Shown: positions 1,899 to 35,473 of the stretch, piece by piece
Layout: the number at the start of each line of letters is the position of its first letter
Position numbering within the stretch: the first letter of the stretch is position 1
Source of the DNA: Escherichia phage EC150
Sequence record: ON210137.1
Direction: 5' to 3' (one strand)
DNA length: 64,000 nucleotides
Notes under the pieces: generated by a model
Told to the model about the DNA's origin: nothing
What the model saw: only the letters and a program-made list of their open reading frames with translations
Databases searched by the model: none
Translations under genes and position numbers: made by a program

Positions 1899-2287
1899 GA
1901 ATGAAGCGTTGCCCTTACTGCCACGATGTAATGCATCTTCCACATGAAGAGTTTGTGCAGCACATGACTAATTGTGATAAGAATCCTAAGAGCGAAAGCC
2001 AGCTTGAAGAAAGAATGTTTCTGGTGTCGTTTAAAGCTTCTGCCTATGGCGTGAAACTGGCTTATGGCGCGAGCGGCGCACCAAGTGCTATCAACTGCCC
2101 AACGACATTGAGAAGTGAAATCGACTCGATGCAGCTTGCGGCTTGGATTAACGTCAAGGAAGGCCTCACGCCGCACTTCATCGCGCGCATCCAGTCCCAG
2201 ATTCTTCAAATCAAGCGCGAATACAACCGCGACGTTACTGAAGTGAAGGTCTTGTCCATCACGCCGATGAATAAGGAGCTGGCTTGA
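1895..2287 (+). CDS. hypothetical protein, possibly zinc-binding (130 aa)
   Basis: CPYCHD...H...C Cys/His cluster near N-terminus; ATGA overlap with upstream gene. Confidence 0.5.
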   Translation: MRMKRCPYCHDVMHLPHEEFVQHMTNCDKNPKSESQLEERMFLVSFKASAYGVKLAYGASGAPSAINCPTTLRSEIDSMQLAAWINVKEGLTPHFIARIQSQILQIKREYNRDVTEVKVLSITPMNKELA

Positions 2288-2544
2288 ATAAGGGACCGAT
2301 GGCGCCACTGGCCCTTGCCGCGCGGAAGCTTCGACAGGCCGTTAATGGGTCGCGGCCCGTGGTGTTAACACTAGACGATGCAAAGGCACTGGTAGAGCTA
2401 CTCGACGAGAACAACCGACGCAAGAATAGAGAGAACACATTAAAGTACCGCGTCACGCCAGCCGGACGCGAGTGTGAAAAGAAAGCTTACTTGCGGCGTA
2501 AGTTAAGGTCAGTCGGTCTACACGAAGAAGCCGACCAGATTTAA
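2284..2544 (+). CDS. hypothetical protein (86 aa)
   Basis: ORF in same-strand array with start overlapping upstream stop; followed by terminator copy 2. Confidence 0.45.
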   Translation: MNKGPMAPLALAARKLRQAVNGSRPVVLTLDDAKALVELLDENNRRKNRENTLKYRVTPAGRECEKKAYLRRKLRSVGLHEEADQI

Positions 2545-2551
2545 TTCGAAA

Positions 2552-2580
2552 AGGTGAGCTAAATGCTTGCCTTTTTATTT
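2552..2580 (+). terminator. rho-independent terminator, copy 2 of the duplicated element
   Basis: Same stem-loop as 1039-1059 (AGGTGAGC TAAAT GCTTGCCT) followed by TTTTTATTT. Confidence 0.5.
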
Positions 2581-2622
2581 GTCTGTATTATACTTACTTC
2601 ATCAAGCAAAGGAGAGGTTATT

Positions 2623-2928
2623 ATGAGTACCGAAGCTATGAAGAGCAAGTTGTTTGAGGTGATGCAGCCCGCTGTCGAGTGCGGAGCTATTCAGGAGTTC
2701 AAAGAGACGCAAGAAGGCGGTGAGCCAGTATTCTTCTTCAAGAACAAGAAAGGTGCGGCGGCTGCGGTGATGCTCTTGAAGAACAGCGACACGACCTTTA
2801 TCCTTTGCGCAGGCGGTTATGACCTTGTTGCCGATGATGCCTACATCACCTGTGCGACGGGTCTTAATCCTATGTTAACGTTTGAGCGTCGCGGCATTCG
2901 TGTTGCGACGTTTGGAGGCGGTTTATGA
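2623..2928 (+). CDS. hypothetical protein (101 aa)
   Basis: Start adjusted to internal ATG 5 nt after AAGGAGAGG. Confidence 0.5.
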   Translation: MSTEAMKSKLFEVMQPAVECGAIQEFKETQEGGEPVFFFKNKKGAAAAVMLLKNSDTTFILCAGGYDLVADDAYITCATGLNPMLTFERRGIRVATFGGGL

Positions 2929-3110
2929 GCACCGAAGTCCATAACGCATCAGCACTGGTAAGCTTTTACCGAAACAAAGGCGTGTCGCTAGTTAAAACGC
3001 CGCAAGGCATGCTGTTCTTTGGCACGCGATTCCTTAAGGCTTCGGAGCGTGAAACGCTGTCTAAATTCGACCAGAAGACATTACACGCAGTTTGGAGAAG
3101 ACAGCAATGA
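2925..3110 (+). CDS. hypothetical protein (61 aa)
   Basis: Short ORF with start/stop overlaps on both sides. Confidence 0.35.
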   Translation: MSTEVHNASALVSFYRNKGVSLVKTPQGMLFFGTRFLKASERETLSKFDQKTLHAVWRRQQ

Positions 3111-3307
3111 CATCAAATCTTAAGGCCCGTTTATTATTCATCAAGCCGCATGTGCCGTATAAGATTAGTAAGCGCACCTGGATTAACATTTACAACCGCA
3201 GCGGCGACCGTTGTTTGTACAAGGCAAAGCGGCGCAAGAAGGTATATTTAAAGGCTGTGATGTCGCAACCCGTCGATGCATTCAACATCGGCGAAAATGA
3301 ACTGTAA
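3107..3307 (+). CDS. hypothetical basic protein (66 aa)
   Basis: Internal ATG overlapping upstream stop (ATGA); track ORF begins with TTG at 3092. Confidence 0.4.
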   Translation: MTSNLKARLLFIKPHVPYKISKRTWINIYNRSGDRCLYKAKRRKKVYLKAVMSQPVDAFNIGENEL

Positions 3308-3339
3308 ATCGGCTATCAAATTGAACTCGGAGTAAAGAA

Positions 3340-3849
3340 ATGAAAATCGAACAACTCGAAGCAGTATTGGAAATGGCTGTAAAGGCAGGCGCAATCAGAA
3401 GCTATAGCCGCGAGAAGTCGGATGACGCTGCGCACTTTTGTCGCAACTTCTATATCGTCGGCAACCTTAATGACCACTACACCATCGAGTGGTATACTAA
3501 TATGATGGCTCTTAAGTCGCGCACCATGGAGCTTTGGTGTGATGATGTCTGCTTATCCAACACCCATCCATCCTACGACGTTGCGTTAGCATTCTATTAC
3601 GGAAGCCGTCAACCTGTCGCCCACATCGGTGAGAAGTATGAGCACCTTAAGGCGCGACCAGAGGAATCAATGGACGGTTGGATTTATTGGGCTGGCGTCA
3701 ACAATCCTGTTCCTGGTAAGAAGGTCATGTTTAAATTGCGCTTCGGCTATGAATCTAAATCACCTGCTCTTTCAGATGATTTGAGATGGGAGATTGTTGA
3801 CGATGCTTATGCAACTGACATCATTGCTTATCGAGTCATGGAGGAATAA
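3340..3849 (+). CDS. hypothetical protein (169 aa) sharing a C-terminal domain with 5004-5429
   Basis: C-terminal ~58 aa (W.G.NPVPGK.V.F.L..GY.SK...SD.L.W...AYRV) is paralogous to the C-terminus of the 5004-5429 product. Confidence 0.55.
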   Translation: MKIEQLEAVLEMAVKAGAIRSYSREKSDDAAHFCRNFYIVGNLNDHYTIEWYTNMMALKSRTMELWCDDVCLSNTHPSYDVALAFYYGSRQPVAHIGEKYEHLKARPEESMDGWIYWAGVNNPVPGKKVMFKLRFGYESKSPALSDDLRWEIVDDAYATDIIAYRVMEE

Positions 3850-4190
3850 TGGAAGAGCAAGAAGGCCGTGAGCTAACGTTCGACGAGCAAATGCAAGAGC
3901 TTCAGCGCACATCGTCGCTGCGCGGTAAGGTTGTTGACATCGAGGCGAGCGAATCCAACCTCACCCAGTGGCGGCTCAAGTGCACCAGCACAAGCAAGGA
4001 TATGTTAAGCTTCAAAGTCGGTCAGACTTATTTGCTTTATGAGGCAAAAGGACTTATTATTGATGGAAGGCAAATTGTCTTCACGGTAGTCAGCGGAATG
4101 CATTGGTTCGTGAAGCGTGATGTCGAGGGCCGTGACATGTTTGTCGCAGGATTTCCAGAAACAAGATTCCAATTGGAGAAGGTTAAATGA
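3849..4190 (+). CDS. hypothetical protein (113 aa)
   Basis: ORF in same-strand array; start abuts upstream stop. Confidence 0.5.
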   Translation: MEEQEGRELTFDEQMQELQRTSSLRGKVVDIEASESNLTQWRLKCTSTSKDMLSFKVGQTYLLYEAKGLIIDGRQIVFTVVSGMHWFVKRDVEGRDMFVAGFPETRFQLEKVK

Positions 4191-4519
4191 AATTGAAATG
4201 GTACGTGGACCCTGAGACGACAGGCTCATACAGGTCATTCCAACGTCGCGGCTGGCCGATTTGTTACAGCGGCAATCCCGATAAAGAAGACTGCGAGATG
4301 CTCGCCGCGATAGTAAGTCTTAATCATGACGGCTATGAAGGCCACTACGCGAGAGCAACCAACCTTCGGCTCAAGGTGCGCATCCATTTCAAGGTCGCAG
4401 GCGAGGACCGCACCGGACTCTCCAAAGAAGAGTTCAGCAGCATTGCCGAAGCAAAGGCATGGCTAAAGGCGTTCTACAAGGCCAATCCTAAATTTTATCC
4501 AACTAAGGGTGCATCATGA
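4187..4519 (+). CDS. hypothetical protein (110 aa)
   Basis: ORF in same-strand array; ATGA overlap. Confidence 0.5.
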   Translation: MKLKWYVDPETTGSYRSFQRRGWPICYSGNPDKEDCEMLAAIVSLNHDGYEGHYARATNLRLKVRIHFKVAGEDRTGLSKEEFSSIAEAKAWLKAFYKANPKFYPTKGAS

Positions 4520-5007
4520 CTAACAAAACGCAACGCATCAATTTTGAAGGTAAAGAATACGAAATAGACGCTCGTGCAAGATTCGTTGCGCGCGATTCTA
4601 ACGGAACCATCTGGGCGTATGAGGGAAAGCCTGCATGGAACGATTGGTGCGGCCAGTGGGGATATGCAATTGGCGATTCACTTTGGTGTAAGCAAATTGG
4701 TGATGGAAAGATGTTCAAAGAGAATAAACCATCATCACGTGATTCATTGAAGGAAGTCGAATCAATCAAAATCCAAGACCAAGCGCCATCGACAGATAAC
4801 CAATACGCAGTCGGGCAACGTGACATCGAGCAACTCGACGAGGGCGGCTATTATACGCGCCACATCTATGCCATGACGCATGAAGGACTTTGCAGCAAGT
4901 CGGACATCGCCGCTGAACTGGCCCATCGTGACTTACAAATCGACCTTCTCAAGATAGAAGTGCAGAACTTACGAAACACCCTGTTAAATACTTGGAGCTT
5001 AAAATGA
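4516..5007 (+). CDS. hypothetical protein (163 aa)
   Basis: ORF in same-strand array; ATGA overlap. Confidence 0.5.
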   Translation: MTNKTQRINFEGKEYEIDARARFVARDSNGTIWAYEGKPAWNDWCGQWGYAIGDSLWCKQIGDGKMFKENKPSSRDSLKEVESIKIQDQAPSTDNQYAVGQRDIEQLDEGGYYTRHIYAMTHEGLCSKSDIAAELAHRDLQIDLLKIEVQNLRNTLLNTWSLK

Positions 5008-5429
5008 TACAACGTTACGACCTGACATATGATGTGGTATCAGAAGATTGCTCCATCACTCCCGTTCCAGAGAGTCATGAAGGACGTTTTGTTGCATATG
5101 AGGACTATGCCGCGCTGGAAGCGAAATACAGTGAAGCGCAACGCGAGTTGGTTGCATTACGCTCACAGGTCCGTGATGCATCGGTGCTTGTTAAGCAGTT
5201 GCACGACGTTGTTGCTACTATAGGCGTGGATGATGATGCGCCGAAGGAGGAAGCGTGGACCGTGTGGCTTGGTGGCGCGAATCCGGTGCCTGGGAAGATG
5301 GTTGAGTTTGAATTACTCAACGGTTATAAATCAAAAGAGGCCGTCCCTTCGGATAATTTGAACTGGGGTGCAGTGGCAAGCCCGACTGGCGCAAAGATTG
5401 TTGCTTATCGGGTCGTTAAGGAGGGGTGA
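5004..5429 (+). CDS. hypothetical protein (141 aa) sharing a C-terminal domain with 3340-3849
   Basis: Internal ATG overlapping upstream stop, GGAG 6 nt upstream; C-terminal ~58 aa paralogous to 3340-3849 product. Confidence 0.55.
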   Translation: MIQRYDLTYDVVSEDCSITPVPESHEGRFVAYEDYAALEAKYSEAQRELVALRSQVRDASVLVKQLHDVVATIGVDDDAPKEEAWTVWLGGANPVPGKMVEFELLNGYKSKEAVPSDNLNWGAVASPTGAKIVAYRVVKEG

Positions 5430-5962
5430 TGGGCGGCTTTTGGCGTAAAGCTAAATACTCTAAAGACTTGCATTACTTCTTGGATAATGAAGGCATAAGT
5501 ATATGTGGTAGGTACAGAAGGGATAATGAATCAGCGTCGCAAAGTAATAAGGCTGAATGGTTACTCAAGGAAGAATGCAAAGTTTGCCGCAAACGTTTTT
5601 GTGACAAAACTAGCATAACTGATTACATAAAGGAGCTTAGAAAAAGATGTAAAAGCCCGCAAGAGTTTGCCATAGCTCTTTGGGATGATCACCCTGAGTT
5701 GAGAAGCGAATGGTTAAAGACTGATGCAATCAATTATATCTTCAAATCGAAATACAGGACGACAGCAAGATATAAAATGGATGAAGCAGTAATTCAGAAG
5801 GTATTTTCTTATTGGAGGGATACAGTCGATATTGTGAAAATAAAGAAATACCAAAACGAAGTGCTGCTGGAATTGGAGAGGATTGGCTATAAAGTCACCA
5901 ATAAAATGATAAAAGAAGAAATAAAAAGGAGAACGGAAAAGGGACTGATGCCTAAGATATAG
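5426..5962 (+). CDS. hypothetical basic Cys-containing protein (178 aa)
   Basis: AT-rich coding region whose composition differs from neighbours; no recognisable domain. Confidence 0.45.
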   Translation: MMGGFWRKAKYSKDLHYFLDNEGISICGRYRRDNESASQSNKAEWLLKEECKVCRKRFCDKTSITDYIKELRKRCKSPQEFAIALWDDHPELRSEWLKTDAINYIFKSKYRTTARYKMDEAVIQKVFSYWRDTVDIVKIKKYQNEVLLELERIGYKVTNKMIKEEIKRRTEKGLMPKI

Positions 5963-6209
5963 TGAATAAACGAACACTGTTTACGTGTTTTGAAGAATGG
6001 AATGTGTGCAATGGGTCGCTTTATGCGGCCTTTTGTCGTTTGGGTCGTGTTTTGCGATGGAATAATTATGATGAGGTGTTTTATTTATTGATTGTGCGGA
6101 AATATTTAGAAATATATTTCATAGGTCGTGTCTATTGGTCCGTGGTGTTTGTTAGATTATATCTATGGATTGAAATTTTAGTGTCGTGAAACGTGGTGTT
6201 TGAACACAT

Positions 6210-6575
6210 TTGATACGCCTAAAATACGGCTAAAAATTAAGCGTATCATGGCTGCAGGCCGCGTCGTTCCTGGATTCTTCTTTTTAAAATTGGTACACCC
6301 TTACGTCATGATACGTCATGGTTTTTTATCCGTATCAGTGTACAGCCCTTGCCGCGCCTGGCTTGTACATTAATCTTACGGATGATACGGATAAAACTGG
6401 GCATCGTTATATATAAAACTCCAAAAATAAATAAACTCCATTTTAAAAACATTTATATTAATTTTTTTCATATCCTCATACTTATGTTAATTTATATATT
6501 TAACGTATCATCCGTAAGATATAAGTAAAAACAAAGACTTGCGGCAATACGGATGATACGTCATGATACGCTTCA
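6210..6575. repeat. repeat-flanked AT-rich element, copy A
   Basis: Multiple copies in both orientations of CGTATCATCCGTA / TACGGATGATACG (9-mer unit TCATCCGTA) flanking a ~100-bp AT-rich core (6400-6500); homologous to 22190-22460. Confidence 0.6.
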
Positions 6576-27778: not shown

Positions 27779-28264
27779 ATGACAAAATCAAAAATGATAG
27801 AAAAACAGATTAAGGCGCTTCAGTCTATGAAGGGTCTTACTGTTGAGGCAGGATGGTTTGATTCTACCAGATACCCTTCAGAAACTGGTGGAGAAGGAAT
27901 ACTGGTGTCAGAAGTCGCGCGACTTAACGAGTTTGGTCACATAGCTGTTTTGAACTTTGGACAAGGCCCAGTCAGGGTAGAAGTGCCACCCAGACCATTC
28001 ATGAGATATGCCTATGAATTATTCGTTAGTGAGCGCAGTGAAATAGAGAATAAAATTGCTAAAAAGATTTTTTCCGGTAAAATAGACGCTAGACAGGCAT
28101 TGGGTCAAATTGGGCTTGCGATGGAAGCAAAGATTGTCGAATCAATTAAAAACGGACCGTGGCAACCAAATGCCAGATATACTGTACGTGTGAAGGGATT
28201 CGACAAGCCTTTGATTCACACTAGCCTCATGTGGCAATCTGTCAGCAGCCAAGTCATTAAATAA
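27779..28264 (+). CDS. hypothetical structural protein (about 161 aa)
   Basis: Start adjusted to internal ATG just after upstream stop. Confidence 0.5.
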   Translation: MTKSKMIEKQIKALQSMKGLTVEAGWFDSTRYPSETGGEGILVSEVARLNEFGHIAVLNFGQGPVRVEVPPRPFMRYAYELFVSERSEIENKIAKKIFSGKIDARQALGQIGLAMEAKIVESIKNGPWQPNARYTVRVKGFDKPLIHTSLMWQSVSSQVIK

Positions 28265-28276
28265 GAGGACACCGAC

Positions 28277-29815
28277 GTGATCAGTCAATCTCGTTATATT
28301 AAAATTGTATCAGGGGTCGGAGCAGGCGCGGCTGTTGCAGTTCGCAAACTGTCGCTTCGCGTCATGACTTCTAATACAGTTCTGCCGCCGGGCATTGTAG
28401 CAGAATTTTCAACGGCTGATGCTGTTGGATCATATTTCGGTTATTCTTCCGAAGAATATAAGCGCGCAGCATTATATTTTGGATTCATCAGCAAGCAAAT
28501 TAACTCGCCTGATTCAATCAGCTTCTCGCGTATTGTTTCAACTGCGATTCCAGCAATGGTCATCGGTGATACTGAGCCTAAAGTGCTTGCTACGTTTCAA
28601 GCATTCACTGGCGCTATTTTAAGCATCACTTATGATGGCACAGACTACCTGACTGACGCAATTAACCTTTCAGCGGCAACAAGTCTGGCGAATGTGGCTG
28701 AACTTCTGGAAACGGCAATCAATACTAAATTTGCAGCAGAAGGTGGCACGTCGGTGCCTGCACTTGCTGATGCAGAAGTGTATTGGAACGCTAATACTCA
28801 GCAGTTCACGCTGGAAGCAGCGCCGTCGACCGCTGGCGCAGGCAACCTGTCTATCAACGTCACAGGCCAACCGACCGACCCGTCTCAAGCATTGGGTTGG
28901 ACCACCACTGGCACCGTAACCGTTGCAGGCCAGGGCGTTTCAAGTCCGGTAGAAGCAATCGCAGCATCTGTGGAAATCTCCAACAACTTCGGCTCATTCC
29001 TTTTTGCTGGGGCTGACCGAACTCTGGAAGAAATTACCGCTGTGGCAGCGTGGAATCATTCGCAGAATAATATGTACATGTATTTATTCTCGACTTCGTT
29101 TGCTAATATCGGGTCATACTACACCGCTCTGAAAGGGTACTCAGGCGTTGGCATGATGATTCGCGCAACTAACCTTGCCAACGATTACATCGACCAAGCA
29201 CCTGCTGAAATCCTCGCGGCAACAAACTATAATACTGTGAATGCGACTCAAAACTACATGTATTATCAGTTTGATACTCGCAACGTGACTGTTTCAACTG
29301 ACTCTCGCGCAGATACTGCTGATCAAAACCGTGCGAACTACATCGGCGCTACTCAGCAGGCCGGACAAACCTTGGCATTCTTCCAGCGCGGCGTATTGAT
29401 GGGCGGGTCAACAGCAGCAGTTGATATGAACACTTATGCCAACGAAATGTGGCTCAAGTCTGCTATTACATCTCAGCTGTTCAGCATGTTCTTGAATCTT
29501 GGTCGCGTCCCTGCTAACGAAGAAGGGAAAGCGACTGTGCAAGCCATGATTCAGGTTGCTGTGGATAACGCAAAAGTGAACGGCACCATCTCTGTTGGCA
29601 AGGCGCTGACTGAGATTCAGAAACAATACATCACGCAAACTTCCGGTGACAACACTGCTTGGCGGCAGGTTGAAACTATCGGTTACTGGCTGACTGTAGA
29701 TTTTGATACTGAAACCACTTCCGATGGGCGCACCGAATACTATGCAACATACACGCTAATCTACTCTAAAGATGATGCTGTGCGTCGCGTTGAAGGTCGT
29801 GACGTTCTTATCTAA
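28277..29815 (+). CDS. tail sheath protein
   Basis: 512 aa; immediately upstream of tube genes; Gly/Ala/Thr-rich. Confidence 0.7.
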   Translation: MISQSRYIKIVSGVGAGAAVAVRKLSLRVMTSNTVLPPGIVAEFSTADAVGSYFGYSSEEYKRAALYFGFISKQINSPDSISFSRIVSTAIPAMVIGDTEPKVLATFQAFTGAILSITYDGTDYLTDAINLSAATSLANVAELLETAINTKFAAEGGTSVPALADAEVYWNANTQQFTLEAAPSTAGAGNLSINVTGQPTDPSQALGWTTTGTVTVAGQGVSSPVEAIAASVEISNNFGSFLFAGADRTLEEITAVAAWNHSQNNMYMYLFSTSFANIGSYYTALKGYSGVGMMIRATNLANDYIDQAPAEILAATNYNTVNATQNYMYYQFDTRNVTVSTDSRADTADQNRANYIGATQQAGQTLAFFQRGVLMGGSTAAVDMNTYANEMWLKSAITSQLFSMFLNLGRVPANEEGKATVQAMIQVAVDNAKVNGTISVGKALTEIQKQYITQTSGDNTAWRQVETIGYWLTVDFDTETTSDGRTEYYATYTLIYSKDDAVRRVEGRDVLI

Positions 29816-29862
29816 ATAATTGCCGCCGTAACTGGCGGCCATCTCTCTGAGAGGAATCTGTA

Positions 29863-30330
29863 ATGATTAACGTTTCCGGTTTTGGCGCTTCGATTCGTTT
29901 AGTGGCATCAAACACTTTTCCAAATGGTGTAACCCTTTCTGATTTCGCAGATGATGCTGATCCGATTGACGCGCCTGATCTTCAAATCTCTGAAGCCGCA
30001 ATGGGGCTTAACGGTGACCTGGTAGTCTGGAACCGTGCCAACCCTCTTGAAGTAGGCGTCAACATCATCCCTACTTCTGAAAGCGATGTAAACTTAGATG
30101 TTCTGGCAGCGGCTAACCGTGTAGGCAAGCGCAAGAACTCTGCGAAAGACGTGATCACCCTTATTCTGACCTACCCTTCTGGCATGGTCATTACACTGAA
30201 CAAGGGCACTTTGACGACTGGTTCAGTAATTCCTGGCATCCAGTCTCAGGGTCGTGTAAAAACACGTCAATATCGCTTTAAGTTTGAGAACGTAGTCAAA
30301 ACTGGCGTGAGCAACCAAGAGATTTTATAA
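29863..30330 (+). CDS. tail tube protein
   Basis: 155 aa directly after sheath; N-terminus MINVSGFGASIRLVA; paralog at 31281-31778. Confidence 0.65.
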   Translation: MINVSGFGASIRLVASNTFPNGVTLSDFADDADPIDAPDLQISEAAMGLNGDLVVWNRANPLEVGVNIIPTSESDVNLDVLAAANRVGKRKNSAKDVITLILTYPSGMVITLNKGTLTTGSVIPGIQSQGRVKTRQYRFKFENVVKTGVSNQEIL

Positions 30331-30659
30331 TGTATCAAATACCACTTGACAGCGTACCTAACCAGAATATCAGCTTTAACGTTGACGGGGCTTATTGGCA
30401 GCTGCACATATTCGCCGCAATTGAGCACATGTGCGCAGATGTTTACCGCAATGGCGAATTGTTGATTCAAGGGGTGCGCTGTTTTGGTGGTATACCAATG
30501 GTGCCTTATAAATATCTCATGATTGGGTACGGCAATTTTATTTTTGACAGCACGCCCGATTATGAGAACTTTAATTCTGGCGGCTGTAATTTATATTACA
30601 TGTCAGAATCTGAGTTGGCTGAATTCCAGAAAACTGCTGAAGCGGAGTTTGCAATTTGA
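30330..30659 (+). CDS. hypothetical tail protein (109 aa)
   Basis: ORF in tail operon. Confidence 0.45.
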   Translation: MYQIPLDSVPNQNISFNVDGAYWQLHIFAAIEHMCADVYRNGELLIQGVRCFGGIPMVPYKYLMIGYGNFIFDSTPDYENFNSGGCNLYYMSESELAEFQKTAEAEFAI

Positions 30660-31012
30660 CAACTCTAACGATTGAAGTTAATGATAACAACGACCTGTTT
30701 CTGCCTGATGGAAGAAATTTGAATATTCTGTCAGGAGAAAAGGCCATGGTACAAGTTATCAAGGCAGCGCATCAAATGCGACTTGGTGAAGACTTGTACG
30801 ATGTTGAAAACGGAGTCGATTATTTAGGCACTGTTTTCAAATCGCCCGTTGATGAAGACGGTGCGAGAAAGTCGATTGCAGATGCTATTCTGAAGAAAGC
30901 AGACGTTGCCGGAATCGACTCATTGACTGTCACCATCCAAAACGGTATTCTTGGATTCACCGCTGAAGTGGTGACTATTTATGGCGAACGTATAAAGGTG
31001 AGTAATCAATAA
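30656..31012 (+). CDS. hypothetical tail protein (118 aa)
   Basis: ORF in tail operon. Confidence 0.45.
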   Translation: MTTLTIEVNDNNDLFLPDGRNLNILSGEKAMVQVIKAAHQMRLGEDLYDVENGVDYLGTVFKSPVDEDGARKSIADAILKKADVAGIDSLTVTIQNGILGFTAEVVTIYGERIKVSNQ

Positions 31013-31278
31013 TGGCACAAGTAATTCATTTTGCTAATGGCGTCATGAAATTTGGCGAAAAATTTGAAGACGCATCTGAATTATTTAACAAGACTTCAAA
31101 GCCTGTTGTGGAGAAGAAAGAACAGGTTGAAGAGAAGGCAGTAGAATCGAAAGTTGATTTTGATTCGATGAGCGTCTCTGAATTGAAGGCTTATGCAAAG
31201 GAACATGAGATTGACATCAAAGGTCTTTCTTATAAGGATGAAATTCTTGCAGCAGTTAAATCTGCATCTGCGGAGTAA
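31012..31278 (+). CDS. small protein with C-terminal HeH/SAP-like motif (88 aa)
   Basis: MSVSELKAYAKEHEIDIKGLSYKDEILAAV resembles Rho-N/HeH DNA-binding motif. Confidence 0.45.
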   Translation: MAQVIHFANGVMKFGEKFEDASELFNKTSKPVVEKKEQVEEKAVESKVDFDSMSVSELKAYAKEHEIDIKGLSYKDEILAAVKSASAE

Positions 31279-31280
31279 AC

Positions 31281-31778
31281 ATGGTCAATATTAGTGGATT
31301 TGGCACAAGCATTAGAATTGTCGCTCTCCAATCTTTTCCTGTTGGGCTGAATATCAGTTCTTTGTCTGATGACCAGGATTCGCTAATTATTGAGGAAGTT
31401 GAATCAGTAGGCTATCAACTTACTTATGACGGCGGCATTTGTATTTATGACAAGGCCGCCGTCGTTCGCGTATCCATTGCGGTGATCCCAAACACTGAAG
31501 ATGACATAAACCTAAAGCTTTTGCTTTCCGCTCGTAAAGGCGGATTCAAGTGGCTTCCTATACAGGATGTCACGTCAATGCTTATTACATATCCTGATGG
31601 CGGCAGAGTAGCATTTTCGAACGGGACCATAATCAGCGGTCCGCTTGGCGACTCCATTGAGCAATCCGGTCGTCGCAAGACAAACAGATATACATTCGTG
31701 TTTGCCAGCTACGGCGGCGCACAGAGCACATCGCAAATTGCAAAAGGCGTGGTGCAGAGCATATTGGGGTCAATTTAA
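31281..31778 (+). CDS. tail tube protein paralog
   Basis: N-terminus MVNISGFGTSIRIVA and overall pattern align with the 29863-30330 product. Confidence 0.6.
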   Translation: MVNISGFGTSIRIVALQSFPVGLNISSLSDDQDSLIIEEVESVGYQLTYDGGICIYDKAAVVRVSIAVIPNTEDDINLKLLLSARKGGFKWLPIQDVTSMLITYPDGGRVAFSNGTIISGPLGDSIEQSGRRKTNRYTFVFASYGGAQSTSQIAKGVVQSILGSI

Positions 31779-32311
31779 TGGCTATCGATTTATTGTCATA
31801 TAGTCTTTCAAACAGAAGCTTCAAAATAAGAAGCTTCAACCTTGGGGAAGTGTCAACGCTTGGTTGGGCTATTGTTAACGTAAAAATAAGACTCCAAGCA
31901 AAGATATTCAAAAACCAAAGGGAAGACGGAAGCTATATCGTCGATGGCAGAGTCAAAATGCCTAGAATATTGACTGTGACTGTAATAGCACAGACAAAAA
32001 GCGCGTCCGACGCAATCGCAAAGATGTTGCAGAACAGGTCCACGATATACACAATAAATTCTCGTGGGCTAATCTTTGAACGTATGGTACTGCAAAATAA
32101 CAATTTCAGCCAAGATGCTGACAATATAACCTCACAACCCATACAACTAGTCTTCCATGAGATATTAACACAGCAGGATGTGTCTATTCAAACAGCGCAA
32201 GCAGCCGACTCAACTGTCATTGAGCGCGGCATCGCTTACATAAAAGAGACTACTGCCAGCGTCACTGGCGTTGCAACAAAGGTGATGAATGGCATCAAGG
32301 GGATGTTCTGA
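31778..32311 (+). CDS. hypothetical tail protein (177 aa)
   Basis: ORF in tail operon. Confidence 0.45.
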   Translation: MAIDLLSYSLSNRSFKIRSFNLGEVSTLGWAIVNVKIRLQAKIFKNQREDGSYIVDGRVKMPRILTVTVIAQTKSASDAIAKMLQNRSTIYTINSRGLIFERMVLQNNNFSQDADNITSQPIQLVFHEILTQQDVSIQTAQAADSTVIERGIAYIKETTASVTGVATKVMNGIKGMF

Positions 32312-32871
32312 TGGACTTTGTTTCGATTCTGCTTTCTGGTCAATCTCTGACCATAACGAATGAGTCGACAGGGCTTCCTGTCTGGACAAGGCTTTCTCCA
32401 GTGTCTGCAGAAATAACATCACCAGCAGAAACTACTCAATTTCCACTTGCTGGAACGGCGATGCAGGTGGTGGAAGTATCAAGCACATCCTCAGTAAGCA
32501 ATTTACAGGCGGCAAAAGTAATAATGCCAGCGCACATGGCGCTAAACGTAATTTGCAACGACCAATCGACTATTGAAAACATAATTAATACATTCGACAA
32601 TGATGAAGTCACATTTTCAATAGCTTCTCGAAGCATAATTGCAAGTAAAATGTCGATGTCTGATGTCGAAATAACTCAGTCAGAAGAAAACCTGAATGGA
32701 GTCTCAATTGTAATAACATTTGAACAGACGTCATTTAGTATTCAAGGAAGCTTTGACCCTAAACAGTCCGCAGATGAATCGTCAAATGGCGTGGCTATTA
32801 AAGAGCCAGTCAGTTTGACTACAACTGTGAGTTCGTTATATAATAAAATAAAATCAACAGTAGGAATATAA
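32311..32871 (+). CDS. hypothetical tail protein (186 aa)
   Basis: ORF in tail operon upstream of tape measure. Confidence 0.45.
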   Translation: MDFVSILLSGQSLTITNESTGLPVWTRLSPVSAEITSPAETTQFPLAGTAMQVVEVSSTSSVSNLQAAKVIMPAHMALNVICNDQSTIENIINTFDNDEVTFSIASRSIIASKMSMSDVEITQSEENLNGVSIVITFEQTSFSIQGSFDPKQSADESSNGVAIKEPVSLTTTVSSLYNKIKSTVGI

Positions 32872-32872
32872 A

Positions 32873-33289
32873 ATGAAGATCACCAATAAACAAACTGGTC
32901 GTAAAGTAGAAATTAAAATCAGCAAAATGACTGCGATGGAAGGTTGGAACATACAGCGCCGATTTATCGAATTTGCAATGTCAAAAGACCCTGCATTCCG
33001 TTCAGAATACACAATGGAAGTATTAAGCTTTGCAAAGGTTGAACTTGATGTCGGGCAAGAAATTCCGCTGAGCACTGGCGCACTTATTGACAACCATCTT
33101 GGCGACTGGGAAAACTTGAAATTGGTTTTCGAAGCGGTGTTGATGGAAAACGGAATCAACCCAGAGACTCACGCTGAACGTGAAGGATACTGGGAACAAG
33201 CTGGCGGCGAAATGGCTGCAGCATTTATTGGCGAATCGATGCGATTAATCGCGCCATTCCTCAGCGGCGAGACTCCAAACAAGGGGTAA
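32873..33289 (+). CDS. tail assembly chaperone-like protein
   Basis: 138-aa ORF immediately upstream of tape measure gene. Confidence 0.45.
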   Translation: MKITNKQTGRKVEIKISKMTAMEGWNIQRRFIEFAMSKDPAFRSEYTMEVLSFAKVELDVGQEIPLSTGALIDNHLGDWENLKLVFEAVLMENGINPETHAEREGYWEQAGGEMAAAFIGESMRLIAPFLSGETPNKG

Positions 33290-33292
33290 ACT

Positions 33293-35473
33293 GTGTCTGA
33301 CTCATTAGAAAAATTTGTTCTTCAATATACGGTGGACTTGAAAGAGTCCATCAATCGTCTTGAGCAATTGCAAGATAAGGTTGATCGGTTGATCAGACAA
33401 ATAAAGGCCGCTGGTAAGGACTTCACCGGAGCATTCAAAGATGTGTTTGGTGAGCTGAAGCCTCTCACAGCTGAACTGGGGTCCATTGACGGAATCCTTG
33501 CGCGGCTTACTTATCGCTTTGCCGCGCTCGTTCCTGTTGTCGCAGGATTGGCTGTCGTAGTCAAATCCATTGTTGATGTTCGAAAAGAATACGAAGCGCA
33601 AAGGAAGCTGGGTTTTGAAGCAGGACTTTCACCAATTGGCGTGGAGCAACTACAGCGACAATTGAATGAGAGTTCAGGCGGAGTTCTTGGTGCGCAAGGG
33701 TCAAGGGATTTGATCAGCAAGGCTTCTAATCTCGCATTCAACGCATACACCAACCCAGATGTTATGAACAAGGACAACTTGTTACTTAACAAGATGGGAA
33801 CCAGTCCTTTCAACAGTAACGGCGGCATCAAAGACACAAACCGGCTGCTTGATGAAATTGGCACAAAGCTGAGAAGTGTGAATGAGCAAACCGCTCGTGC
33901 TATTGGTGCTCTGGCAGGTTTTACCGCTGATGAAGTCCGTGCGCTTCGTGAGCGAAATCAATCAGTCAAAGAAAGCACCCGTATAAGCGACGAAGAAACC
34001 GCGAAGCTGCAAAGACAGCAGGTCGCACTTGAAACGATACGAAACAGCATGGGCCAAATTCAAGAAGACTGGCGACGCATTGAACTGGTAATCGGCGAGA
34101 ACGTGATGCCGGCATTCTCGACGCTTGTCAGCAAGACTGCCGATACAGTCGAAGGATTCCAGATGATGTTTCAAAGAATGTCTGATGGATGGTCTGAATT
34201 TGTCGACAATTTCATCGCTGACTTGAAACACCCGTTTGATAAACAGGCGGCTGTCAACGAGCGCCACGAGCGTGCCGTTGATAGATGGATCACTCAGATG
34301 GCTGACGGCGATGTGAAACGCCAGAGGAGTCAGGAGCAAAACGCGGCTGAACAACGTTCTGCGCAAGCACTTTTCACTCGCGATATAAACCTGTTTTCAA
34401 GCGCCGTTTCAACCTTTGCTGGTGTTATTGATGAGCGACAAGCGTGGGCTGCATGGGCTGGTGAGATAGGACGAAGCGCAGGCCAATCCGCAATGCCTGG
34501 CACGCCAGCACTAAGCACTGGTGCGACCGTAGGCAACAACTTGGGGTCAGGAAATCCGACTGCATATGACTCAATCTATGAGGAAGCCTCCAAGCGTTAT
34601 GGAATCCCTGTTGCGATGATGAAGGCCGTCACAGAAGTCGAATCTGGATTCAACCCTAATGCCGTAAGCGGAGCAGGCGCGACCGGACTGATGCAAATAA
34701 TGCCTTCCAACTTCAAGGGACTTGGTATCACAGACGGTAATGACCCAAGACAAAACATTATGGGCGGCGCTCAACTTCTCAAGGAATATTTAACTGCTGC
34801 CAATGGCGATTGGAATCTTGCACTGACTATGTATCACGGCGGATATGACCGCAGCGGATGGGGAAAGAACACCCGTGCATACCCTGGCAAGGTGATGGCC
34901 GCTCTCGAACGACAGGCGAATGGAGAATACGCCACGGGAGCGCCGCAAGGTGCACCAGTTACTCCAGTGCTTAGCGGTAGCGGAGTAGAAGCGTCAAAAG
35001 GCAGCTACGCTCCAGTACAGGGCCAATCCCGCCAAACGGTGCAATACAGACAGTTGCAAGAAGCCATTGCAGGATACCTAAACGTGCCAGTTGAGCAGCT
35101 GATGCAAGGACAAGTCAACAAAGGTGATATTGACTTTGCTCAAACTTACCTTAAACTTGGAACGCAAAGGGATTATATTAAAAACATGCAGCTGGCTTCA
35201 ACTCCAGGTGTAAGGCCGAACATTCAGGCCGAAGCCATGAAGAATGCTCGTCTCGCGGCATTCCAGCTTGAAGCATTCCAGAAATACGGCGGCGACCTTT
35301 CCGCGAATAGTCGACCTGGTGGGCGTGATATTACTATGGGTCAGAAAAACGTTGTCATCAACGTCAACGGCGCTCAAGACCCAAGAAGCACGGCGATTGA
35401 GACTAAGCGTGTGCTTGAACAAGATGATATAAACGACATAAACAACCTTACTGCTACACCTTTGAAGTGGTGA
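33293..35473 (+). CDS. tape measure protein with lytic transglycosylase (SLT) domain
   Basis: 726 aa; coiled-coil-rich N-terminus; TEVESGFNPNAVSGAGATGLMQIMPSNF ... YHGG matches SLT catalytic region. Confidence 0.85.
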   Translation: MSDSLEKFVLQYTVDLKESINRLEQLQDKVDRLIRQIKAAGKDFTGAFKDVFGELKPLTAELGSIDGILARLTYRFAALVPVVAGLAVVVKSIVDVRKEYEAQRKLGFEAGLSPIGVEQLQRQLNESSGGVLGAQGSRDLISKASNLAFNAYTNPDVMNKDNLLLNKMGTSPFNSNGGIKDTNRLLDEIGTKLRSVNEQTARAIGALAGFTADEVRALRERNQSVKESTRISDEETAKLQRQQVALETIRNSMGQIQEDWRRIELVIGENVMPAFSTLVSKTADTVEGFQMMFQRMSDGWSEFVDNFIADLKHPFDKQAAVNERHERAVDRWITQMADGDVKRQRSQEQNAAEQRSAQALFTRDINLFSSAVSTFAGVIDERQAWAAWAGEIGRSAGQSAMPGTPALSTGATVGNNLGSGNPTAYDSIYEEASKRYGIPVAMMKAVTEVESGFNPNAVSGAGATGLMQIMPSNFKGLGITDGNDPRQNIMGGAQLLKEYLTAANGDWNLALTMYHGGYDRSGWGKNTRAYPGKVMAALERQANGEYATGAPQGAPVTPVLSGSGVEASKGSYAPVQGQSRQTVQYRQLQEAIAGYLNVPVEQLMQGQVNKGDIDFAQTYLKLGTQRDYIKNMQLASTPGVRPNIQAEAMKNARLAAFQLEAFQKYGGDLSANSRPGGRDITMGQKNVVINVNGAQDPRSTAIETKRVLEQDDINDINNLTATPLKW

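Follow-up and report, generated by a model that had tools for sequence, protein, structure and literature searches.

The major tail tube and a baseplate tube paralog in the tail module of a Wifcevirus, with a small accessory protein candidate encoded between the adaptor genes and the baseplate tube gene

The DNA analysed here, a window of 64,000 nucleotides from Escherichia phage EC150 (ON210137.1), belongs to a Wifcevirus, an E. coli myophage with about 98% identity to phages kaset and ECML-117. The genes of its tail module run collinear with those of the Pbunavirus phages E217 and Pa193, whose virion structures have been solved, and all features described below lie on the plus strand. The gene order sheath, tube, adaptor, sheath initiator, an uncharacterised protein that we call X, tube-B, ripcord-1, ripcord-2, a 138-aa protein and tape measure protein is common to PB1, MTx, XcP1, Maja and two metagenomic contigs. 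A third metagenomic contig (L014) has the same order, but starts just one gene ahead of X. The tail sheath gene (28277..29815, 512 aa) matches PF11863 (E=2.3e-120) and is labelled 'tail sheath' in kaset and ECML-117, and its product, with 54.87 kDa, has the mass of vB_Eco4M-7_48 in the mass spectrometry (MS) data discussed below. The tube gene begins 47 nt after the sheath stop. The gap between them holds a GC-rich stem-loop, GCCGCC-6 nt-GGCGGC (29822..29839; MFE -14.9 kcal/mol, z=-2.3), which is not followed by a T-run, and a stem-loop of different sequence occupies the same place in six of the seven relatives that were folded. The transcriptome paper on phage 14-1 does not mention a sheath-tube hairpin, and a promoter and terminator scan within 29863-31778 gave nothing convincing, with counts near the shuffled expectation.

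A preliminary description of this region had recognised two paralogous tail tube genes separated by three small ORFs. Both are present exactly as described, at 29863-30330 and 31281-31778, with ORFs of 109 aa (30330-30659), 118 aa (30656-31012) and 88 aa (31012-31278) between them. The 155-aa and 165-aa products align by BLASTP without gaps over 143 positions, with 47 identities (33%), 61% positives and E=2e-32, and the N-terminal motif on which the relationship had been proposed, M(I/V)N(V/I)SGFG(A/T)SIR(L/I)VA, lies inside this alignment. Such similarity is far above chance, and comparison of the two sequences confirms them as true paralogs. Moreover, both exceed the 27-bit gathering threshold of PF22764, the E217_Gp32 tail tube family, with 202.5 bits for the 155-aa protein (residues 2-144) and 180.4 bits for the 165-aa protein (residues 3-144), and both fall into one and the same PHROG family.

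It had also been suggested that one copy is the main tube subunit and the other a specialised paralog, and this division holds, each copy having its own solved ortholog, a tube for one and a baseplate tube for the other. The product of 29863..30330 (paralog A, 155 aa, 16.5 kDa) matches 'gp33 Tail tube' of Pa193 (PDB 9b42_M) over residues 1-150 with E=1.9e-48 and E217 gp32 (8fuv_T) with E=5.8e-42, and it favours the solved tube over the baseplate tube (3.4e-25). These alignments make it an ortholog of the solved tube and identify it as the major tail tube protein, and it falls in one clade (A) with the tubes of PB1, MTx, XcP1, Maja and Gekk3-15. The KPP12 ortholog of the tube is a major virion band, as seen by SDS-PAGE and N-terminal sequencing. 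The product of 31281..31778 (paralog B, 165 aa, 17.6 kDa) shows the opposite preference: residues 1-162 align to residues 1-164 of 'gp37 Baseplate tube' of Pa193 (9b45_M) with E=1.1e-52, as compared with 1.4e-21 for the solved tube, and the match to E217 gp36 (8env_I) has E=2.2e-49. By the same kind of evidence this protein, which falls in the B clade, is identified as the ortholog of the baseplate tube, or tail tube-B. The PDB entries 8env and 8eon give E217 gp36 the title 'Ripcord/Baseplate component gp36'.

The neighbours of tube-B could be assigned in the same way. The 109-aa product of 30330..30659 is the 'helical bundle' baseplate adaptor, matching Pa193 gp34 (9b45_A, E=3.9e-26), E217 gp33 (8env_G, E=7.5e-26) and the family PF22479 Pam3_gp18 (E=2e-17). 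The 118-aa product of 30656..31012 is the sheath initiator (Pa193 gp35 'Sheath initiator', 9b45_G, E=4.6e-23; E217 gp34, 8env_H); its gene uses a TTG start, and the alignment to Pa193 gp35 begins at residue 1. Downstream of tube-B follow ripcord-1 (31778..32311, 177 aa; Pa193 gp38, 9b45_S, E=7.6e-20; E217 gp37, 8eon_A; PF22760) and ripcord-2 (32311..32871, 186 aa; Pa193 gp39, 9b45_V, E=2.5e-26; E217 gp38, 8eon_D; PF22760 with E=8.3e-72).

Both paralogs, and not just one of them, were detected in particles. MS on CsCl-purified Wifcevirus particles detected tube, tube-B and X (PMC7048862), and the orthologs of both paralogs have been built in cryo-EM maps. We assigned the vB_Eco4M-7 locus tags to genes via molecular mass and gene order, and the detected masses equal the computed ones for tube, sheath initiator, X, tube-B and ripcord-1. 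The tube was found in two Wifcevirus phages (vB_Eco4M-7_49 and ECML-117 PI34_gp47), as was the sheath initiator, of 12.8 kDa (vB_Eco4M-7_51 and PI34_gp49), and tube-B was found in vB_Eco4M-7 as the 17.6 kDa vB_Eco4M-7_53, from three peptides and at a score of only 4.5 (PMC7048862). Tube-B (PI34_gp51) was not detected in the ECML-117 MS, as would be expected for six copies per virion, but this is not proof.

The third small ORF between the paralogs (31012..31278) encodes X, a protein of 88 aa and 9.8 kDa assigned to phrog_10541, a family of unknown function. An acidic linker connects its N-terminal motif, VIHFANGVMKFG, to an HeH/SAP-like module at the C-terminus (about residues 50-87), and the whole protein has a pI of 5.1. 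The gene slot and the motif are also found in PB1 ORF33, MTx gp044, Maja_021, XcP1 gp19, Gekk3-15_00026 and three metagenomic proteins (P0005, P0033 and P0034), although the motif is kept only weakly in Gekk3-15. Overall length in the family is 78-168 aa, with a very variable linker; in PB1-type phages the gene in this slot encodes 142 aa, is rich in Pro, Ala and Thr and lacks the HeH module, whereas in the present phage it encodes 88 aa with HeH. A word-indexed homolog search with X returned three close clusters only, and an exhaustive HMMER search returned mostly unrelated proteins sharing the HeH module alone, plus three full-length relatives; no meaningful relative was found among PDB sequences. 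From the gene numbering in the cryo-EM papers and from PB1 ORF33, we take X to be the positional ortholog of E217 gp35 and Pa193 gp36. Neither paper discusses these two proteins (Pa193 gp36 is absent from the main text), and the E217 paper says nothing of unassigned density.

The preliminary description had ascribed to X an HeH/SAP-like DNA-binding motif. As regards fold, the prediction agrees: AlphaFold2 gives a helix at residues 55-64, an extended segment and a helix at 75-87 with pLDDT >90 (about 92), so that the modelled protein would have the helix, extended linker and helix that define HeH. The score against Pfam SAP (PF02037) is 22.0 bits (E=1.2e-4), just below the gathering threshold of 23.9 bits, and a precomputed PF02037 match exists for two of the close homologs, P0002 and P0003. 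The best Foldseek matches in the PDB, all with E>1, are mostly SAP/HeH domains, namely the FAN1 SAP, the Rho N-terminus, the CDNF/MANF C-domain, T4 EndoVII and YqbF; on the SAP-like domain of CDNF the module superposes over 39 aligned columns with 1.2 A rmsd and a target-normalised TM of 0.82. Residues ~50-87 are alike, by predicted fold, to SAP/HeH/Rho_N modules (PF02037, PF07498), including that of the B. subtilis prophage protein YqbF (PDB 2hjq). Similar HeH modules sit on many other, small phage proteins, and we found nothing relevant in the literature on HeH modules in phage virions.

DNA binding is another matter. The SAP domains that bind DNA are basic. The X module is net acidic, with a charge of -4 over the last 40 residues (-6, -1 and -3 in relatives), which, as far as composition can tell, argues against nucleic-acid binding, and HeH is missing from the orthologs of the five other lineages compared (MTx, PB1, Maja, XcP1 and Gekk3-15), while the N-terminal motif is mostly kept. 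On these two grounds a DNA-binding role is unsupported, and the reading of X as a DNA-binding regulator of the classical kind was rejected. We regard it as unlikely that X acts on DNA more broadly, either as a regulator of late genes or as a protein that is ejected with the DNA and binds to or protects the end of the genome, despite the predicted module, its SAP, Rho_N and Ish1 matches near the cut-offs and the 'endonuclease VII'-type HeH similarity in phrog_3281. Several HeH-less orthologs do end in a basic tail rich in Lys, Thr and Ala, but the tail of the MTx ortholog is strongly acidic. The MS detection of X in CsCl-purified particles (vB_Eco4M-7_52, with 10 peptides, 65% coverage and a score of 2929; also PI34_gp50; PMC7048862) is strong, but scores in that data set do not follow copy number, the tail fibre having 7387 and the major capsid protein 936. 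Moreover, the same preparation held non-structural proteins such as helicase and protease, and X may therefore have co-purified.

Our best guess is instead that X would be a small factor with an accessory or assembly role, which could be anchored via the conserved N-terminal beta-hairpin motif, while its flexible acidic tail would escape symmetrised maps; in the Wifcevirus-like clade this tail ends in the HeH module, more likely an interaction module than a sequence-specific DNA binder. A more far-reaching proposal, which we put forward only tentatively and consider rather doubtful, is that the family comprises conserved and so far undescribed virion-associated proteins of E217-like myophages, with a beta-hairpin anchor, a disordered acidic linker and, in the Wifcevirus-like clade, a C-terminal HeH; invisible in symmetrised maps, they might remain mobile, at the baseplate or inside the tail lumen, with a role during assembly or ejection. 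X, conserved in the module and detected in purified particles, makes a reasonable small follow-up target.

For the two tube proteins the solved structures suggest a definite arrangement. In E217 and Pa193 six copies of the tube-B ortholog (gp36 and gp37, respectively) close into a ring on the axis of the tube. This ring is placed at the end nearest the baseplate, with the last tube ring on one side and the ripcord ring on the other, and is the platform for three gp37/gp38 heterodimers (gp38/gp39 in Pa193) (PMC10329688, PMC11456595). By homology, the major tube protein of Wifcevirus would polymerise into a stack of hexameric rings within the sheath, and tube-B would form a single hexameric ring, coaxial with it, at the baseplate end. 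Its distal face would carry three heterodimers of ripcord-1 and ripcord-2 (31778-32871), which would step the symmetry from six-fold down to the trimeric hub and tail tip, and the helical-bundle adaptor and the sheath initiator would tie the baseplate cap to the mobile wedge ring and the sheath. Since the proximal face of tube-B should present a tube-like surface where the major tube protein can stack, tube-B would act as the tube initiator within the static 'baseplate cap'. The ring position is carried over from orthologs about 52% identical. Tube-B differs from paralog A in a C-terminal extension that the alignment shows in all six B sequences and that falls inside the alignment to Pa193 gp37; as the two cryo-EM papers differ slightly on which adaptor is bound to which C-terminal arm, we make no claim on its contacts. 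We consider the scheme as a whole, a tube and an ancient baseplate tube-B ring with adaptors between them and X as an accessory factor, very probable.

The specialised paralog had been described as a tube initiator or terminator, and only the first of these roles is compatible with an orthologous ring at the baseplate end. The tube terminators of some phages share the tube fold. A tube-fold paralog such as the 165-aa protein might on that account have been a terminator or neck-proximal cap instead of a baseplate-proximal ring. We judge this very improbable: its orthologs, 52% identical over their full length, were built in baseplate and not in neck maps (9b45 and 8env/8eon being baseplate entries), and its gene adjoins the ripcord-1/ripcord-2 pair directly upstream and follows the adaptor and sheath initiator genes, as it does in PB1, MTx, XcP1, Maja and the metagenomic contigs L012-L014. 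A separate gene before the sheath is already labelled 'tail completion or Neck1 protein'; the corresponding ORF (27779-28261) had no match in the PDB search, and this role hence comes from database annotation only.

In a tree the A copies form one clade and the B copies another, and single-copy relatives group with the A clade. Identities are 43-55% among A copies, 36-58% among B copies and 26-39% across the two clades. As these clades extend across six lineages (Wifcevirus, Pbunavirus, Myosmarvirus, Carpasinavirus, Bcepfunavirus and an Aeromonas phage), the tube/tube-B duplication is, on the evidence of the tree, ancient, and tblastn found 735 places in 379 phage records, with two places in nearly every record listed. 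That the pair is instead a recent and possibly redundant duplication, with interchangeable tube subunits or one copy decaying, has in its favour the shared Pfam family, PHROG family and N-terminal motif, but it is contradicted by the tree and is hardly credible given the extension found in B copies only, a tube-B conserved to 99% identity or more in 27 phage records and the detection of both products by MS.

The tube and tube-B arrangement is confirmed as real but ordinary, since cryo-EM of the related Pseudomonas phages E217 and Pa193 had already solved it. E217 gp32 (tail tube) and gp36 (tail tube-B) have the same two-paralog arrangement, the same gene order, with adaptor and sheath initiator genes lying between the paralogs, and the same PF22764 family, although E217 has a host of another genus, belongs to another phage genus and shows about 52-55% identity. 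Pa193 gp33 and gp37 (9b42/9b45) are the best PDB matches for the two paralogs, and the neighbouring baseplate-cap and adaptor proteins of Pa193 were all matched too. In T4, gp48 and gp54 are tube initiators by the same principle. In the Pakpunavirus P7-1, tail tube-B and -C (gp78 and gp79) are again tube-fold ring paralogs that extend the tube into the baseplate and seed polymerisation (PMC12697256); P7-1 adds two tube-like rings and has a homohexameric ripcord, whereas Wifcevirus would add a single ring and have a heterohexameric pair of ripcords. Biologically, this part of the module offers little that is new, as tube and tube-B, the adaptors and the ripcord pair have been described near-atomically for E217 and Pa193, and structural genes of Wifcevirus have already been annotated from a Pbunavirus cryo-EM structure (PMC11990801).

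Downstream of the ripcord genes lies the gene for the 138-aa protein (32873..33289), which belongs to phrog_4627, of unknown function, and had no match in a Pfam search. Its position upstream of the tape measure gene is kept in all relatives, and from this position it is probably the tape-measure chaperone. The tape measure protein itself (33293..35473, 726 aa) has a lytic transglycosylase domain (PF01464 SLT, E=3.5e-24) and was found in MS at 79.0 kDa (vB_Eco4M-7_57 / PI34_gp55; PMC7048862). In GenBank and RefSeq records of Wifcevirus, the tube, tube-B and both ripcords are labelled 'tail fiber protein', a label apparently taken over from the PDB/Pfam title and from the annotation in PHROG; these four proteins can now be relabelled with confidence.

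Two genes of this tail region, 29863-30330 and 31281-31778, had been proposed to encode paralogous tail tube proteins, one probably the main subunit and the other a specialised copy. Both ORFs are present at these coordinates, and their paralogy is borne out by an ungapped alignment of 143 residues (33% identity, 61% positives, E=2e-32) that includes the N-terminal motif on which the proposal was based; the likeness is not due to chance. Both products also fall in a single Pfam family (PF22764, cut-off 27 bits; 202.5 and 180.4 bits, respectively) and in phrog_2420. When each product of the region was searched against the sequences of solved structures, the first (tube, 155 aa) gave a full-length match to the 'Tail tube' gp33 of the Pseudomonas phage Pa193 (9b42_M, 1.9e-48) and matched gp32 of phage E217 (8fuv_T, 5.8e-42), and the second (tube-B, 165 aa) matched the Pa193 'Baseplate tube' gp37 (9b45_M, 1-162 to 1-164, 1.1e-52) and E217 gp36 (8env_I, 2.2e-49). 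The preference is reciprocal, with tube reaching only about 1e-25 against baseplate-tube chains and tube-B only 1e-21 or weaker against tube chains. The proposed pairing of a main subunit with a specialised paralog is right.

The solved virions indicate what the specialised copy does. In structure, gp36 of E217 ('tail tube-B') is similar to the tube protein gp32 (RMSD 3.6 Å). It forms a hexameric ring, described as 'concentric' with the tube, to which three gp37/gp38 heterodimers attach; these change the symmetry from six-fold to three-fold for the trimeric hub gp41 and the tip gp43 (PMC10329688). The 'cap' made of these proteins remains at the tube tip after contraction, and the adaptors gp33 and gp34 connect it to the mobile wedge 'nut' (PMC10329688). 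The same picture was obtained for Pa193, with numbers shifted by one, the ring (gp37, 'baseplate tube') described as coaxial and gp38/gp39 named 'ripcord-1/-2' (PMC11456595). Thus, of the two roles suggested for the second copy, that of a terminator does not hold, and the solved orthologs favour an initiator-like baseplate ring. The two cryo-EM papers differ in details of which adaptor binds which C-terminal arm, and for this reason we claim no partner for the C-terminal extension of tube-B. The Pakpunavirus P7-1 has a related design, but with two extra tube-like rings (PMC12697256). Solved structures of related phages already show the whole arrangement, which is ordinary for this phage family.

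The genes lie in a tightly packed run of ORFs on the same strand (28277-35473). Megablast of 28000-33500 retrieved 28 phage records, all with query coverage of at least 80%, and the best matches (Escherichia phages kaset, RCIP0363, ECO71P1, Ro157lw, FEC19, WFH and ECML-117, 98% identity) all belong to the genus Wifcevirus, distant relatives of the Pseudomonas genus Pbunavirus; the structure of one Pbunavirus, from cryo-EM, 'greatly helped' the annotation of Wifcevirus structural genes (BASEL-collection paper, PMC11990801). As first described, exactly three small ORFs separate the paralogs: a 'helical bundle' adaptor (30330-30659, 109 aa; Pa193 gp34, 3.9e-26; E217 gp33, 7.5e-26), a sheath initiator (30656-31012, 118 aa; Pa193 gp35, 4.6e-23; E217 gp34, 1.3e-21) and an 88-aa protein, here called X (31012-31278), for which the search of solved structures gave no relative and no meaningful match. 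The TTG start of the sheath initiator at 30656, overlapping the preceding stop codon, is supported by the alignment with Pa193 gp35, which begins at residue 1. In phages kaset and vB_Eco4M-7n a truncated, 88-aa sheath initiator starting at an internal ATG is annotated. Adjoining tube-B on its 3' side is a second paralog pair (23% identity, E=2e-5 in BLASTP, PF22760 in both), formed by ripcord-1 (31778-32311, 177 aa; Pa193 gp38/E217 gp37, 7.6e-20) and ripcord-2 (32311-32871, 186 aa; Pa193 gp39/E217 gp38, 2.5e-26); the counterparts of the pair in Pa193 and E217 make up a heterohexameric ring that takes the symmetry from six-fold to three-fold. Then come a 138-aa ORF of unknown family and the 726-aa tape measure protein (TMP), with an SLT domain.

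In the public records NC_025441, NC_048073, NC_048194 and PV245935, tube, tube-B and both ripcords are labelled 'tail fiber protein', in agreement with the PDB/Pfam title 'Tail fiber protein gp32' (8fuv, PF22764) and with the annotation of phrog_2420; the label is wrong for all four genes. The ripcord-2 homolog of Burkholderia phage Maja (4526-5511) is recorded as a 'tape measure chaperone' that has a programmed frameshift product; in view of the structural role solved for the E217/Pa193 counterpart, this is probably an error of annotation.

The duplication is widespread. With tube-B as query, tblastn found 735 places in 379 phage records, two in nearly every record among those listed, from phages of Pseudomonas, Escherichia, Burkholderia, Serratia, Bordetella, Xanthomonas, Vibrio, Pantoea, Erwinia and Aeromonas; in 27 phage records the identity of tube-B is 99% or higher. 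In a neighbour-joining tree of both copies from six lineages (the window, PB1, Serratia MTx, Xanthomonas XcP1, Burkholderia Maja and Aeromonas Gekk3-15) and two single-copy relatives, the tube (A) and tube-B (B) copies form separate clades, with identities of 43-55% within A, 36-58% within B and 26-39% between them, and the single-copy relatives group with A. Each B copy, unlike A, is extended at the C-terminus by about 15-20 residues. From the separate clades and the B-only extension, the duplication is older than the divergence of these genera, and the two copies would not be interchangeable. In the distant relative Gekk3-15 (2072-6566) the gene order departs from that of the window: sheath, tube, adaptor, sheath initiator, X-like ORF, 141-aa 'tail assembly chaperone', tube-B and tape measure, with no ripcord pair between the last two; the module has thus been rearranged at least once.

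The possibility that only one paralog is expressed or present in particles is contradicted by the LC-MS/MS data of Necel et al. on CsCl-purified vB_Eco4M-7 and ECML-117 (PMC7048862), as both were detected in vB_Eco4M-7. The masses computed from the window (tube 16.52, adaptor 12.42, sheath initiator 12.81, X 9.81, tube-B 17.61, ripcord-1 19.66 and TMP 79.08 kDa) agree with consecutive locus tags in both tables; ECML-117 tags were checked against the RefSeq record, and those of vB_Eco4M-7 were assigned by mass and order only. In vB_Eco4M-7, tube (_49) gave 6 peptides, 52% coverage and a score of 283, and tube-B (_53) 3 peptides, 25% coverage and a score of 4.5; the sheath initiator (_51), ripcord-1 (_54) and TMP (_57) were detected and the adaptor (_50) was not. 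In ECML-117, tube (gp47), adaptor (gp48), sheath initiator (gp49), X (gp50) and TMP (gp55) were detected, and tube-B (gp51) and ripcord-1 (gp52) were not. That tube-B was detected so weakly is in keeping with a virion holding 6 copies of it and roughly 30 rings of tube. N-terminal sequencing identified one of the three major virion bands of KPP12, a PB1-like phage, as the tube ortholog (MINISAFGSIVQFTASRTFP; PMC3474789).

Only X remains a question in this module, and a modest one. X (vB_Eco4M-7_52) gave 10 peptides, 65% coverage and a score of 2929, the fifth-highest in purified vB_Eco4M-7 (sheath 891, major capsid protein 936); protein scores in this study do not follow copy number, and this value is a lead only. 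Such strong detection in purified particles makes it possible that X is a real virion component. AlphaFold2 on the single sequence predicted an N-terminal hairpin (residues 4-13, low confidence), a disordered middle and, with high confidence (pLDDT about 92), two helices joined by an extended segment (residues 55-87). The best Foldseek matches, none significant, were mostly SAP/HeH (FAN1 SAP, Rho N-terminus, CDNF/MANF C-domain, T4 endonuclease VII and YqbF), and X scored 22.0 bits against Pfam SAP, slightly under the threshold of 23.9. Of the 'HeH/SAP-like DNA-binding motif' in the preliminary description, the HeH (helix-extended-helix) fold is supported but DNA binding is not: the module is net acidic (-4 in X; -6, -1 and -3 in relatives; whole-protein pI of X 5.1), and it also occurs on many unrelated small phage proteins. 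Both the DNA-binding reading and the word 'unusual' were thus weakly founded.

X belongs to a PHROG of unknown function. An exhaustive HMMER search found three divergent full-length relatives (98, 118 and 168 aa), in which the N-terminal motif is joined through a variable-length linker to a C-terminal HeH; all three lie in the X slot of metagenomic contigs. The module order is identical in two of these contigs, and the third starts with the gene preceding X, with the order after X unchanged. Same-slot genes of other genera (PB1 ORF33, 142 aa; MTx gp044, 84 aa; Maja_021, 78 aa; XcP1 gp19, 150 aa; Gekk3-15_00026, 103 aa, where the motif is only weakly recognisable) share with X only this short motif, hydrophobic-x-F/Y-x-N/G-G-hydrophobic-M, followed by a low-complexity tail without HeH. 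On this distribution, the HeH was added in one clade to a protein that is older. The corresponding numbers in E217 ('gp35') and Pa193 ('gp36') are not mentioned in the main texts of PMC10329688 and PMC11456595. Our best guess is that X may be an accessory protein or an assembly factor, flexible and held in place by its N-terminal hairpin.

Sheath and tube genes are separated by 47 nt, in which lies a GC-rich stem-loop (29822-29839, GCCGCC gtaact GGCGGC; MFE about -15 kcal/mol over 50 nt) with no T-run behind it. A conserved RNA element, such as an attenuator or a processing or stability site, is suggested by strong stem-loops that differ in sequence but occupy this place in PB1, MTx, XcP1, Gekk3-15 and two metagenomic relatives too.
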